Source: a virus
Lineage: Duplodnaviria > Heunggongvirae > Uroviricota > Caudoviricetes
Length of the DNA stretch: 64,000 nucleotides
Strand: one strand, 5' to 3'
IMG/VR virus record: IMGVR_UViG_3300001199_000001
Location: 165,404 to 229,403 of that record
This document shows, one piece after another, positions 6,226-57,062 of this stretch. Position 1 is the stretch's first letter. Every line of letters begins with the position of its first letter. The translations under genes were made by a program, and so were the position numbers. The notes under the pieces are model-generated. The model had not been told where the DNA came from. It ran no database searches and saw only the letters and a program-made list of their open reading frames with translations.

Positions 6226-6903
6226 ATGCGCAAGCCATCAAAACGCTTTACCGCGCGGACCGGAGACCGAGCCGTTAATCACCCTCTCGAAGAGGCCATC
6301 CGGCTTGTGAAGGCGAACGCTACGGCTAAGTTCGATGAGACCGTTGAAATTTCCGTCAACCTGGGCGTCGATCCACGCCACGCCGATCAACAGGTGCGTG
6401 GTGTCGTTAGCCTACCGTCCGGTACTGGGCGCACGGTTCGTGTGGCGGTGATCGCCAAGGACGCCAAGGCGCAAGAAGCGGTCGATGCAGGTGCGGATAT
6501 TGTCGGCGCTGAAGACCTCGTCGAGCGTATTCAAGGCGGGTTTCTGGCTTTCGACCGCGTCATCGCGTCGCCGGACATGATGGCGCTCGTCGGTCGGCTC
6601 GGTAAGGTGCTGGGTCCACGTGGTCTGATGCCCAATCCGCGTGTCGGAACCGTCACGCAAAACGTCGGTCAGGCCGTCAAGGACGCTAAAGGCGGGGCGA
6701 TAGAATTTCGCACCGACAAGGCCGGAATCATTCACGCAGGAATTGGTAAGACGAGCTTTACCGACGATGCTCTGAAAGCCAACGCAGTCGCCATGATAGA
6801 CGCGCTGAACAAAGCCAAGCCCACGGGGGCTAAGGGGACCTACATGCAGCGAGTCAGTCTCTCATCAACTATGGGGCCGGGCTTCAAGGTTGATTTAGCG
6901 TAG
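6226..6903 (+). CDS. rplA: 50S ribosomal protein uL1
   Basis: [40 protein letters not shown]; 225 aa. Confidence 0.98.
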
Positions 6904-38249: not shown

Positions 38250-38493
38250 TGGTCCGAGGGGCGGGATTCGAACCGACGACCTCCGAGTCTTCATCCAGCA
38301 ACTTCAGGTATGTCTCATAGCGTTCTTATCCGTTCACAAGGTAGCGACCCTTGCTACTAGGTCCGGATATCTACGAGTTTTCGAGCCTCAAATCACCACA
38401 GTCAGGCTGAAGTGGGCCTAACCGTTACGTAATCCTACTCTCTTCCGTCTGTTTACGCTGGCCTCGGCGCTCTACCAACTGAGCTACCCCCGG
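38250..38493 (-). tRNA. tRNA-Phe(GAA)-like gene interrupted by a 168-nt insertion in the anticodon loop
   Basis: CCGGGGG/CCCTCGG-A-CCA acceptor, GCTC/GAGC D arm, CCGAG/CTCGG anticodon stem, TTCGAAT T loop; removing 38295-38462 gives 76 nt with loop ATGAAGA. Confidence 0.8.
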
Positions 38494-39347: not shown

Positions 39348-39425
39348 TGGCGCCCGTGACAGGAGTCGAACCTGCAAACCTTTCTGGTGTATGCCCAGAC
39401 TGCTCCGCCGTTGAGCTACACAGGC
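39348..39425 (-). tRNA. tRNA-like gene with non-canonical anticodon loop (identity undetermined)
   Basis: GCCTGTG/CACGGGC-G-CCA acceptor, GCTC/GAGC D arm, GCAGG-TTCGACT-CCTGT T arm; anticodon arm GTCTG-GGCATACAC-CAGAA lacks U33; own promoter TTGACA-17-TATATT at 39469-39441. Confidence 0.78.
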
Positions 39426-50685: not shown

Positions 50686-50943
50686 CTAATGTTCTCTGAC
50701 GAGCATGTCGGAGTCGTCCCAATGAAAGCCCCGTATGTCGTTCACGAAGTGTTCCAATGTCGAGGATGCCATGATCGGTATACGGAATTCCTGCGACAGG
50801 CCCATAGCGTGATCGACCGCGTCGGAGAAATCCTTCACAGGGTCGTTGGTGGCGAAGCGTCTATCAAACGGACCGGGTCCCTGGACGCGGACGGCCTTGT
50901 ATTTTTGGCCATACTGAATGCTGAGCGTAATTACAGCGTGCAT
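50686..50943 (-). CDS. hypothetical protein
   Basis: TAATG coupling at 50943. Confidence 0.55.
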   Translation of the reverse strand: MHAVITLSIQYGQKYKAVRVQGPGPFDRRFATNDPVKDFSDAVDHAMGLSQEFRIPIMASSTLEHFVNDIRGFHWDDSDMLVREH

Positions 50944-51626
50944 TAAAAGCTCCCGCTGCGGGCGTGGCGATGACGACACTTGATCTGCGCGCCTTTGTTG
51001 GCCTCTTCCTTGACACAGTACTTGAGGGCCGCCTGCGGGTTCTTCAACACCAGACCTTCATCGGCTGCGTTGTCCCGGACGGAATTGAACAGGCTTTTGA
51101 AACCGTCCATGAAATTGGCGAGGATGAAGGTATGGTCGTTGACCTTCAGTGAATCCTCAGTCTCGCCGATAATCGGGAAAGCATCCGTCAATCGGTCGTA
51201 GCGTTCCGCGTACACGGAACCGATCAGATAGGCTCCGTCGGCCACCAAACAGTCATGGAGGTAGTTGGTATCCTTAGGCCCGCCTTCGACCTTGGAGTGC
51301 AGTAGTTCGGAAACGAACACCCACCAGCCCTTGCCGGGTAGATTCTGAAACGCCCGCGACGAGGACGCGGTGGGAGCCCACATTGAGTGCGGCTCGCCGT
51401 CTCGTTTTGAGCAATGAAGCACCCGTTCGCCGCTGGCGTTGGGCGGGGCGACGGCGATCACATTGGAGGTGCCATTCTTCTTGACCTGCGCCACCCAGCC
51501 GCGCTTCTCGTAGAAGCCAAGCATGCTCGACGGAATCTTCGCGTCGGTCCCGGCGCGAACCGGATAGAGGAAGCGATAGTCGTCGTACCTCACCGAGGAG
51601 GTTTCAACTTCAAATGCTCGGGTCAC
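50943..51626 (-). CDS. minimal ATP-dependent ligase-like nucleotidyltransferase (adenylation domain only)
   Basis: QVKKNG (motif I), SELL, HD, EGLVLK (motif IV), IKCR (motif V); no OB domain. Confidence 0.75.
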   Translation of the reverse strand: MTRAFEVETSSVRYDDYRFLYPVRAGTDAKIPSSMLGFYEKRGWVAQVKKNGTSNVIAVAPPNASGERVLHCSKRDGEPHSMWAPTASSSRAFQNLPGKGWWVFVSELLHSKVEGGPKDTNYLHDCLVADGAYLIGSVYAERYDRLTDAFPIIGETEDSLKVNDHTFILANFMDGFKSLFNSVRDNAADEGLVLKNPQAALKYCVKEEANKGAQIKCRHRHARSGSF

Positions 51627-54122: not shown

Positions 54123-54455
54123 TTAATCCTCTGCGGCTTCAAGGACGGCGCGGTCAAACCAACCAAGATCGGTGAGTTCGTGATCGACAACTTCGACTAC
54201 TTTCCAGCCGAAGGATTCCCAACGCTGGCTGGACATATGGAAACCGGCGCCGGAGGGGTCAAGGATGGTCGAAAGGCGCACGCGAACGCGTTTGCCGAGC
54301 GAGCCATAGTTGCCGGTTTCTTGCGCATGAAGAAGGGCGTGGATGATATCCGCGTCGACAGGGTAGCTCTGGCTGTAGCGCAGCATGTCGAGCGGAAAGC
54401 CGCCGTAGCGGGAGCCTTCGACATAATAGCCGTAGACGGTGGGACGTTTGGGCAT
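54123..54455 (-). CDS. hypothetical phage protein (FP.DMLRY / RWESFGW motif)
   Basis: GGAGG SD; promoter TTGACA-17-TATTCT at 54509-54481. Confidence 0.72.
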   Translation of the reverse strand: MPKRPTVYGYYVEGSRYGGFPLDMLRYSQSYPVDADIIHALLHAQETGNYGSLGKRVRVRLSTILDPSGAGFHMSSQRWESFGWKVVEVVDHELTDLGWFDRAVLEAAED

Positions 54456-54523
54456 CCGTGTTCCTCCAGTTGATGGGCGGAGAATAGCCCAGCGCGTCAG
54501 CCATGTCAACAGCTAATAATTGG

Positions 54524-54682
54524 TTAGAAGATATTAGCCGTTTTCAGGATGCCGTAGGCCACGGCGATACCCCGAATCTCATTGACTACGATCAGCAGGA
54601 TAACGACGGCTTTGGCGTGCCGGGCGAGAAACCCATAGATCGGCGCGCTGAGCCGATGGCTGCGAAACAGCCCGTCGAGCAT
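54524..54682 (-). CDS. small membrane protein (VNEIRG motif); start uncertain
   Basis: 52 aa from ATG 54682; frame stays open further upstream without ATG/GTG/TTG; promoter TTGACA-16-TATAAT at 54970-54943. Confidence 0.4.
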   Translation of the reverse strand: MLDGLFRSHRLSAPIYGFLARHAKAVVILLIVVNEIRGIAVAYGILKTANIF

Positions 54683-55199
54683 CCCCAGTTGTCGGGCGAA
54701 CGGCTTACACAGCAGCTTCAGCGCGCCGACGATCAGCCCGTCGATAAACCTTATCGGAGCCAGGAGTACGCTAGCTAAGCTGGTGACGTAAGCGTGTACA
54801 CGGAAGCGCCTAGACGGATCGTAGGCGGCATTCTCAGAGCGAATGGGGCTCGGCTGCCCGGAACGCGTGGCGCGCTCCTGAGGGCCTTCTAGCGGGTGGC
54901 TTGATGGGGTCGGGTTTATAGCAGTATTCTCCTTGGTGATTTATTATAAACCACGTTAGGAGAATGTCAACACCATGAATATGGGTCCGGCGAGAGATCA
55001 GCCGTTACCGGTGTGCATGGGAGGGACCTAGGATTCAACACTCAATCCGGTTGCCTAGACGGGACCACCCAAGGCTTTATCCCGCTTTCTCGGCTTATCT
55101 CCCGGCCTAGGAACCCGGTACATCCGCCTGTCTTGTTGCCCATTTGGGCGAATTCGATGTGATGACGCTGCTATAGCCGTGCGCACAGCCTTGCATCAA

Positions 55200-55272
55200 G
55201 TCAGTCGAAGAGGATTCGAACCTCTGGCCTCATCCTCTACGGACGCGCTCTCCCACTGAGCTACCAACCGAC
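55200..55272 (-). ncRNA. tRNA-like module, normal order, no CCA, 5-nt anticodon-position loop
   Basis: GTCGGTTGG/TCGACTGAC stem, TA-GCTC-AGTGGGA-GAGC, CGTCC-GTAGA-GGATG, AGAGG-TTCGAAT-CCTCT. Confidence 0.75.
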
Positions 55273-55326
55273 ACGTCATCACACTTTTCGGCCGGACTTT
55301 GCTAGCTCTATCGGGCCTACCTATGC

Positions 55327-55399
55327 GGGACTGCTCTACCCTCTGAGCTACGGTGCAACCTCTCGGCGGCCCGGTGGGGCTCGAACCCACGTCTTTCCC
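55327..55399 (-). ncRNA. circularly permuted tRNA-like module (T arm - capped acceptor - D arm; YrlA-like)
   Basis: GTGGG-TTCGAGC-CCCAC, acceptor capped by GCC-GAGA-GGT, TA-GCTC-AGAGGGTA-GAGC, closed by GGGA/TCCC. Confidence 0.78.
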
Positions 55400-55704
55400 T
55401 ACTCGTTGCCCGTTCGGGCGAAACTTTGGGACGATCTACCGGTCCGGCTAGAAACCCCCACGTGTGAGGTAACCAATACCTTCGCGGCGGCGAGGCTAAC
55501 GTCCCTCGAAGCCTTCTACTCGCTTTCCCCGATCTTTCCCGTCCCTTGAAAAGCGCTTTTCGCAGGACGTTCTCACACCGGTTATTCGCCTACACCGTTT
55601 TTGATTCGGTTCGACTTGCCAGCGACCTTTTCAGTGAAGCTGACCAGAAACTTGAACTTACGCCAACGGACCGCCACCCAACCGGACGAATTGCACGTCA
55701 TCGC

Positions 55705-55785
55705 GGCCATGATGCTTCTACCTTTAGACCACCTCCCGGTGCCCGGTTGGTGGGCGGGGATCGAACCCGCTTTACAACGATGGCC
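55705..55785 (-). ncRNA. second circularly permuted tRNA-like module (YrlA-like)
   Basis: GCGGG-TTCGATC-CCCGC, CCGG-GCA-CCGG cap, TG-GTCT-AAAGGT-AGAA D-like arm, closed by GGCCAT/ATGGCC. Confidence 0.68.
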
Positions 55786-56067
55786 CATCTTTGCTGGGCT
55801 GTACTATTCCAAGGCCTTTGGAACGCCTGTAGACGATCCGCTGGCGTAAGTTCAAACTACTTTCCAGAAGGCTCGCGGATGCTCATCCCGCGAATCAACG
55901 CCTTTCGGACTCCCCGCGCTCATAGGGTGTGTACACCACCCTACTCCCGACGGATCGGAGTGTCCGCACTGCGGTATCCACCCACGTCGCCCTAGTCGGC
56001 CGCTCTCTCGTTAACCCCGGCAGAGGTTGTAAGCGTTTGAGCTAGCCTTCTGGAAAACAGTTTTGAC

Positions 56068-56137
56068 TGTCAAAGATCGAGGAGCCCGTTGCCGTTCTCC
56101 ATGGTCTTAAGATAGCAAAGGTTGGAGAGGATGTCAA
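56068..56137 (-). promoter_or_regulatory. promoter plus boxA-like antitermination element of the RNA locus
   Basis: TTGACA-17-TATCTT (56137-56109); GATCTTTGACA (56078-56068) resembles rrn-leader boxA. Confidence 0.65.
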
Positions 56138-56161
56138 CAGCTTATTACAACATGTTTTACA

Positions 56162-56268
56162 CCTTAGGAAAGACCGGAGGAGCCGCATTGCTTAGCCAGC
56201 GTCTGCGGCGATCCCGTCACGAGGAGTCTCAGAAGCGTGACCTTCCTACCCTCCGGCCTGTCCTAAGG
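56162..56268 (-). ncRNA. candidate ~107-nt Y-shaped small RNA
   Basis: terminal CCTTAGGA/TCCTAAGG and CCGGAGG/CCTCCGG helices enclosing two hairpins (GTCACG/CGTGAC, GCCGCA/TGCGGC). Confidence 0.6.
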
Positions 56269-56621
56269 CGGATACAGAAGCTACTCGGCTAATGTCAGCC
56301 GTCAACCATTTATTTTACCGAGCGGCGTTCCGGCGGGGAGCTTATCCGTCAACTCGGCGATGTCTTCGATAGCCTGCGCTCGCTTGATTATCGGTTTACT
56401 GAGCGTGGTTGTCATTGGCGCCGTAGCTCCTTTCGATGTAGGCCGTGATACGCGCCTGTTCAGTCTCGGTCCCCTTGATCTGACCAAGCTCCAGACGTAG
56501 TAAGCGCCCACGTGAGGACTCGGTGGGGTCAACGATATTGGCAGAAGCTTCGGCTTGGGTATGACCCCTCCGCAGCCGAGCCAGATGTAGCGGGTTCTGA
56601 TTCACTGAGAAAACTCCTGGG

Positions 56622-57062
56622 TCATTCGCCGAACTTCTTCTGGAGGCGAAGGTACTCGGCATATTCCGGGTCTTCCTCCCGCTCGACTTGCTCAGCGAAG
56701 GTTCCCCAATCCGGCGGCAAAGTCCGGGTCATTCCGTAGCGGTAGTAGTTCACCTGATCTTCGAGTTTGCTGGCGCCGCCGTCGTCCATACGCCCGCCGT
56801 AACCGGCGTCTTCTCGGACCTTGCGCGCCTCGGCGAGAACAGCGGCGATGACCTTTTCGATATCCATAGGTTTAGGCTTCTCCACTTTATCGCCGGGGCG
56901 TGACACCAGTGTAAGTTCGCTTTCGGCGACGTGAAATCCGTTGCCGCCAGCAAAGATGACAAAAACCTGGGGGTCTTCGAGCGGATATTGTTTCACATCG
57001 CGGACAACGCCTTCGCCAAACCCTAGGCAGCGCACGATGTCGCAGGCACGGAACTTAGCCAC
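56622..57062 (-). CDS. hypothetical phage protein
   Basis: 146 aa; DPEYAEYLRLQKKF C-terminal motif. Confidence 0.7.
   Translation of the reverse strand: MAKFRACDIVRCLGFGEGVVRDVKQYPLEDPQVFVIFAGGNGFHVAESELTLVSRPGDKVEKPKPMDIEKVIAAVLAEARKVREDAGYGGRMDDGGASKLEDQVNYYRYGMTRTLPPDWGTFAEQVEREEDPEYAEYLRLQKKFGE

Follow-up and report, generated by a model that had tools for sequence, protein, structure and literature searches.

A probable chain of RNA modules with tRNA-like elbows in a phage genome

Organization of the locus

The stretch of DNA considered here (the window, 64,000 nt) lies inside a virus record of 278,859 bp. On its minus strand, a promoter match is followed by about 1.1 kb of structured, non-coding sequence, made up of modules of which three carry a tRNA-like elbow. 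The features are listed below by window coordinates, read along the minus strand, with one protein gene from elsewhere in the window at the end.

56160..56270, minus strand: further stem-capped module upstream of the promoter, with a stem of about 20 bp and a three-hairpin head
56109..56137, minus strand: sigma-70-type promoter match TTGACA-17-TATCTT with TG before the -10 (scores 10/12)
56078-56068, minus strand: boxA-like 11-mer GATCTTTGACA in the leader
55854..56063, minus strand: D1, a 20-bp closing stem with a branched head and no tRNA elbow (z -4.56)
55649..55858, minus strand: D2, a 27-bp closing stem bearing a permuted elbow (z -6.49), with T arm 55770-55754, sealed acceptor hairpin 55753-55729 and degenerate D arm at about 55728-55714
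55449..55648, minus strand: linker, with local hairpins but no overall folding above the chance level (z -0.35)
55291..55448, minus strand: D3, a YrlA-type permuted elbow (YrlA 26.2 bits, under the family cut-off; z -2.25), with T arm 55390-55374, acceptor 55373-55351 capped by a GAGA tetraloop, and canonical D arm 55348-55333
55157..55284, minus strand: D4, an unpermuted tRNA-like body (55270-55201) on a 12-bp stalk, with a 3' side hairpin (tRNA 46.2 bits)
54981..55156, minus strand: 3' tail, the last bases able to pair with the predicted 5' end (z -0.84)
54943..54970, minus strand: TTGACA-16-TATAAT, the perfect promoter match (12/12) of the downstream gene, which bounds the locus
6226-6903, plus strand: phage-encoded ribosomal protein L1

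The promoter, of the extended -10 type, is found at 56137-56109, where a sequence-only reading of this DNA had placed it, and transcription is predicted to start near 56102. (Six promoter-type sites occur between 53000 and 58000, compared with 2.1 in shuffled sequence.) The boxA-like sequence of the same reading is likewise present at 56078-56068. We regard this 11-mer as boxA-like, with a putative role only; GATCTTTGACA occurs twice in the genome, the second copy (G000:89689) being on the tRNA strand of the main tRNA cluster, and in none of 14 relatives. The accessible text of PMC4807359 supports the general role of boxA only and gives no consensus. The search for an intrinsic terminator in the locus was negative.

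The stretch had been described as free of ORFs. This is not literally so, since it contains a 149-aa ORF on the plus strand and four shorter ones, but none of them scores as gene-like: codon scores of the five range from -0.33 to +0.02, against 0.14-0.27 in seven neighbouring genes, and an ORF of at least 149 aa arises in 55 of 300 shuffles of the stretch. The 1.1 kb is non-coding in character. The region 54300-56900 is covered by one public contig with 0 differences (a contig that may be the source of this DNA), and the assembly of the locus looks sound. Beyond the locus, behind the perfect promoter match and a ribosome-binding-like site, there is an open frame of about 131 codons (54524-54919, minus strand), which has no ATG, GTG or TTG nearby, possibly starts at an ATA and has a weak codon score (0.03).

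Genomic context

Judged by its proteins, the phage is a phiCbK-like, giant Caulobacter-type phage: its primase shares 40-45% identity with the primases of jumbo phages of Caulobacter and Brevundimonas, and its capsid protein 81% with the CcrBL9 counterpart. Closer relatives are represented on short contigs, by capsid proteins at 86-92% identity. The main tRNA cluster, with about 40 tRNAs, is located at 76-90 kb of the genome, and a permuted tmRNA and a true GOLLD RNA are found near 158-160 kb. This RNA island (G000:158303-161530) includes the GOLLD RNA (163.6 bits) with an embedded tRNA, the permuted tmRNA, a tRNA-Met and, at G000:161437, a skipping-rope-like element that scores below the cut-off. 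In addition to L1, the window encodes RtcB, RlaP, Thg1 and PTH2, which match the tRNA-repair kit described for jumbo phages in the accessible part of PMC7824862.

Other RNA-related features occur in the window. At 38250-38492 (minus strand), there is the top half of a tRNA (D arm, T arm and CCA end) in which about 190 nt replace the anticodon loop; it has its own promoter match on the 5' side and a methyltransferase-like ORF downstream, gets no ARAGORN call and falls below the Rfam cut-off. CcrColossus has two tRNA-top-half units in tandem (about 241.46-242.0 kb), followed by gp358, which carries the annotation putative rRNA methyltransferase. Another tRNA-like gene, at 39348-39425 (minus strand), ends in CCA and has an anticodon loop of non-canonical form; it is called Tyr(ata) by ARAGORN and is under the Rfam cut-off. 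Finally, a stand-alone ATP-dependent ligase-like domain of 227 aa (50943-51626, minus strand) was recognized by a weak Pfam match (E 3e-4) and has metagenome relatives at 36-44% identity.

Folding of the modules

The region as a whole folds with a z of -4.85 on the minus strand and -1.78 on the plus strand (25 shuffles per strand). All five helices of the sequence-only reading do pair, one of them through a G-U pair that is valid on the minus strand only. Two are longer than had been thought: the 13-bp helix extends to 20 bp (56063-44/55873-54, two G-U pairs) and the 19-bp helix to 27 bp (55858-32/55675-49, five G-U pairs). These stems overlap by 5 nt, and their lengths were reached in 0 of 100 shuffles and again in 0 of 50 in a second test. 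Folded alone, the modules give z values of -4.56 (D1), -6.49 (D2), -2.25 (D3) and -2.68 (D4), and for D1 and D2 none of 100 shuffles folds as well as the real sequence. The linker (z -0.35, with 28 of 100 shuffles as good) and the tail (z -0.84) behave differently.

The same reading had nested these domains inside a 9-bp helix with arms about 570 nt apart and a 7-bp helix. This arrangement is not supported, since a helix of equal strength occurs in 50 of 50 shuffles; when the three elbows are enforced, pair probabilities are 0.03 for the 9-bp helix and 0.04 for the 7-bp helix. Instead, the full-length ensemble favours a 12-bp leader helix spanning 557 nt (p 0.83), pairing of the 5' and 3' ends by 4+4 bp (p 0.86) and an interrupted 11-bp helix to the tail that spans about 440 nt (p about 0.8). 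These three pairings would be expected of a single intact 1.1-kb ornate RNA showing its three elbows on a scaffold or cage, as would the single promoter match at the 5' end and the lack of an internal terminator, and GOLLD provides a precedent (10.1101/2024.12.08.627333, as far as its accessible text goes). On the other hand, the long-range helices are of chance strength (the 12-bp leader helix itself, with the end pairing and the interrupted tail helix shorter still), the linker and tail fold no better than shuffles, and there is no match to GOLLD or ROOL at E up to 10, the true GOLLD (163.6 bits) being elsewhere in the genome. The intact RNA is therefore considered unlikely. So is its most elaborate form, in which the 1.1 kb would be one folded multivalent elbow display, an undescribed class of large phage RNA that neutralizes a host tRNA-surveillance or defence protein by avidity, free of Ro60.

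The evidence favours a chain of modules over one clamped molecule, because the modules fold alone and the nesting helices are at chance. Between the two options offered earlier, a giant scaffold or a polycistronic precursor, it is the precursor that fits better; the scaffold is not supported, its helices being at chance and its linker and tail folding no better than shuffles. The helices of the locus are themselves a modelled structure, and cut sites, products and binding partners are predicted.

Upstream of the promoter, the stem-capped module at 56160-56270 had been overlooked. The stretch 56150-56305 folds with a z of -4.91, with 0 of 100 shuffles as good. The module has no Rfam match and no exact relative in viral contigs, and probably forms a small RNA of its own within the island.

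Elbows and elbow-less modules

Three T-loop/D-loop elbows are present, as had been proposed, and all of them lack both an anticodon loop of 7 nt and a CCA where a tRNA would have it. What had gone unstated is that the elbows of D2 and D3 are circularly permuted, the T arm coming before the D arm. As read from the sequence, D3 has the bases for U8-A14, G15-C48, G18-U55, G19-C56 and U54-A58, and D2 has a perfect T arm and an A preceding the T stem, so that the Levitt pair is unsatisfied. D4 has a 5-nt anticodon loop, no CCA and three G-U pairs in the acceptor stem. Its acceptor and T stems form a 7+5-bp stack, and the stalk, which by itself has an equal in 47 of 50 shuffles, directly prolongs the acceptor stem (p 0.96). 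The short anticodon arm of D4 has counterparts in 43 viral stretches, many of them redundant, near which no permuted elbow was found by pattern. The original description of a structured non-coding locus of tRNA mimics is supported.

D1 has no elbow. A short hairpin motif from it recurs in unannotated gaps of three Brevundimonas phages, which is suggestive only, as the motif was defined post hoc; whole-gap alignments score no better than shuffles. The exact D1 hairpin word was followed elsewhere and set aside, since its 3 viral and 9 genome matches are chance-like in all 12 cases. The gaps themselves (L188:3050-4000, L190:2300-3560 and L242) are unannotated stretches of 0.8-1.1 kb downstream of a TROVE gene, in which structured elements recur and an element of about 175 nt is shared, with no credible Rfam match; one of their hairpins resembles part of D1.

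Could the tRNA-like modules serve as processing signals, so that cuts of the RNase P and RNase III types set the ends of a functional D1, linker and tail? The D4 stack on its stalk would suit such a role, RNase P cuts the YrlA of M. smegmatis (PMC4201824, accessible part) and the D1 hairpin motif is common to the three Brevundimonas phages. However, the linker and tail have no structure of their own, and the motif has the post hoc origin and the 12 chance-like further matches noted above. This explanation is regarded as quite improbable.

Permuted elbows in other phages

A scan for the T-to-D pattern, covering 3 of the 64 parts of the viral collection, gave 135 matches, of which 95 were tandem tRNAs, 15 lay half inside a tRNA and 25 lay outside any tRNA. 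Twenty-five hand-picked copies were aligned with D2 and D3, 27 in all: 22 of the 25 copies from outside tRNAs (omitting two duplicates and an unpaired copy) and 3 of the 15 half inside. In this alignment, 94.9% of the cells pair and 107 show a change on each side, against 0 of 500 shuffles; the search pattern dictated the invariant loop letters but not the covariation of the acceptor. The permuted, sealed elbow is a real, recurrent and widespread module. Thirteen ORFs beside viral permuted elbows were scanned, of which four encode TROVE, one DUF2828 and one DUF7873. (Weak YrlA matches in two other genomes, G004 and G005, were rejected as ordinary tRNA-Arg pairs.)

Searches with model R1, for which D2 and D3 were both part of the training set, located elbow clusters in four relatives (CcrColossus, CcrPW, Kikimora and Papperlapapp); in Marchewka, the top match was at the same site. 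In these five phages, the elbows form arrays of 0.85-1.3 kb, with stem-capped elbow units back to back, directly upstream of a TROVE gene. Compensatory changes are visible between the CcrColossus and CcrPW arrays. The Y RNAs and Ro60 of CcrColossus are already in print (PMC12135203, seen in its accessible part). Among 15 records (this phage and 14 phiCbK-like relatives), six have TROVE and all six have an array, the sixth (G009) at about 1.5 kb from TROVE. A repeated motif of the arrays occurs 7 times in CcrColossus, 4 in Kikimora, once in Papperlapapp and 0 times in this phage. The array motif of L157, L158, L160, L161 and L162 is repeated and three-part, unlike GNCGAAN0-1G, and all scored units of these arrays fall below the Rfam YrlA cut-off.

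The bacterial Y RNA YrlA binds Ro60 and is modified by TruB and DusA. In the present genome, TROVE gives 0 matches, in a search that was positive in six relatives and two control genomes, and there is no Ro60 gene within 4 kb on the same strand of the locus. DUF2828 is absent from the genome, tblastn with the elbow-neighbour proteins gives no match there, and a DUF7873 family search is empty, as was its control. The GNCGAAN0-1G motif is absent from the locus. In this phage, the position where CcrColossus has its cassette of Ro60 and Y RNAs, with the lysis genes on one side and the HTH-dUTPase-reductase block on the other, is occupied by a gene for a PolyA_pol/CCA-adding-type tRNA nucleotidyltransferase (G000:133271-134485, minus strand; L370:2272-3486).

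These observations bear on whether D2 and D3 are functional Y RNAs, which together with a host Ro60 or an unrecognized phage protein would tether or gate a nuclease in the manner of YrlA. Their YrlA topology and long terminal stems would agree with this, as would the TROVE (4 of 13 ORFs), DUF2828 (1) and DUF7873 (1) genes that adjoin other viral permuted elbows. Against it, the genome has neither TROVE nor DUF2828 and no tblastn match to the neighbour proteins, GNCGAAN0-1G is missing, and the clade motif that occurs 7 times in the CcrColossus array occurs 0 times here. We find such a role doubtful.

Loss of Ro60 need not be the origin of the locus, since orphan single elbows also occur without TROVE: phiCbK, which lacks TROVE, carries one permuted elbow, close to its tmRNA. 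(In phiCbK, an unannotated stretch of about 370 nt at about 103.86-104.22 kb, L159:1210-1570, lies between two tRNA-Met genes and has a permuted elbow at its end.) Outside the elbows, the locus has no sequence likeness to the arrays of the relatives.

Homologues of the locus as a whole were sought in several ways, and none turned up. Blastn against 50,697 phage records gave short matches only, covering at most 4-6% of the query, and against 13 related records only elbow pieces and short chance words. Model R1, run on 14 and 35 records, gave tRNA arrays, TROVE-linked arrays or single elbows at the top-match loci, which were read. Patterns based on D2 had one chance match in viral contigs and 0 in metagenomes, searches with the flanking proteins led to 2 and then 7 loci, none with an elbow, and no RNA dataset with the locus turned up among public sequencing runs. 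The published literature, as searched mostly outside subscription journals and outside supplements, holds no such locus and no Ro60-less elbow operon; the supplementary phage table of PMC4201824, outside that search, could list related RNAs.

The absence of homologues, the degenerate D2 elbow and the odd anticodon arm of D4 would all be consistent with a decaying tRNA or Y-RNA array that has no present function. In a decaying sequence, however, one would not expect 20- and 27-bp stems that are unbroken, with all G-U pairs consistent with one strand, a D3 that retains all elbow contacts and its tetraloop cap, an intact promoter match, or a short anticodon arm that recurs in 43 viral stretches (many redundant). 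Decay is thus thought very unlikely.

Proposed function of the locus

What might such a locus do? The reading preferred here, which is held tentatively and at somewhat less than an even chance, is that of a polycistronic precursor processed into small, Ro60-independent elbow decoys. Host RNA polymerase would transcribe the locus from about 56102, and the boxA-like site could aid passage through the untranslated kilobase by Nus-type antitermination. The two long stems abut, and RNase III-type cleavage within them would release D1 and D2; the stems are presumably long enough to be substrates of this kind. D4 might be trimmed like a pre-tRNA, and could gain a CCA via the phage's own nucleotidyltransferase. 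(A Y-RNA precursor that is polycistronic is reported in the accessible text of PMC4201824, as is cleavage by RNase P together with the addition of CCA.) D2 and D3 offer the elbow as their only tRNA surface, because as encoded they are neither chargeable nor decoding. They would thus compete only for elbow binders, such as modifying or processing enzymes and surveillance or defence proteins, and by doing so such decoys would spare the approximately 40 real tRNAs of the phage.

The targets suggested in the sequence-only reading are less suitable. A decoy for anticodon nucleases fits poorly with two mimics that have no anticodon loop and a third with a loop of 5 nt. The anatomy would equally disfavour a decoy for acceptor-end toxins, the acceptor ends being sealed or CCA-less. 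D1 and the upstream module at 56160-56270 have no elbow, and the decoy idea leaves both unexplained.

Keeping the elbows where there is no Ro60 gene or Ro-binding motif would mean that the job of the elbow is separable from that of Ro60. The YrlA elbow is predicted to bind an effector (10.1101/312249, accessible text), and the locus could act as a natural bait for that factor. If the RNAs do shield phage tRNAs from host attack, they would constitute an RNA-only counter-defence. There are cultured Caulobacter phages among the relatives, which makes these ideas testable in a laboratory host.

Comparison with known RNA systems

Whether the locus belongs to a described family was checked with Rfam covariance models, as the earlier reading had advised: there is no full-length match to any described family, and at E up to 10 only tRNA (D4, 46.2 bits) and a sub-threshold YrlA (D3) are credible. 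Compared with tRNA (RF00005), D4 is above the cut-off and has D, T and acceptor arms. It differs from a decoding tRNA in its 5-nt anticodon loop, in having no encoded CCA and in an acceptor that runs into a stalk.

GOLLD (RF02032) resembles the locus in being a large phage non-coding RNA able to carry a tRNA or pseudo-tRNA; it carries tRNAs in its linker (10.1101/2024.12.08.627333; GOLLD and ROOL background also in PMC6582537 and PMC5737381, all by their accessible parts). Identity with GOLLD was rejected, since its conserved 3' domain is unmatched in the locus at E up to 10, and the same model finds the true copy at G000:158303-158770 in this genome with 163.6 bits. The long-range helices that would give the locus an ornate fold like that of GOLLD are of chance strength. 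ROOL, OLE, raiA and skipping-rope are likewise structured RNAs whose function is unknown, and some of them lie close to phage tRNAs; neither these nor, apart from tRNA and YrlA, other Rfam families match the locus at E up to 10.

The closest resemblance in shape is to YrlA (RF02553). The 26.2 bits of D3 are below the cut-off of 69 bits, a weak test, since the TROVE-linked CcrColossus units are also below it at 30-42 bits. The locus is YrlA-like in shape and is not filed as YrlA, because the Ro60 gene and the binding motif were tested for and are absent. Compared with YrlA systems, it has no Ro60 gene and neither GNCGAAN0-1G nor the clade motif, and it mixes permuted elbows with an unpermuted, short-anticodon tRNA and with elbow-less modules. 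It also occupies a different genomic site from the Y-RNA arrays of the relatives. On the other hand, D2 and D3 share with YrlA the circularly permuted order of T arm, closed acceptor hairpin and D arm that is described in the accessible parts of PMC4201824 and 10.1101/312249; D3 has this permuted domain in full, and D2 has it with a degenerate D arm. Like YrlA and the arrays of the relatives, the locus has no anticodon loop or free CCA in these elbows and has long terminal stems, and, as in Y-RNA arrays, several units lie within about 1 kb behind one promoter. The Y-RNA arrays of related phages are the likely source of its design, the descent being putative.
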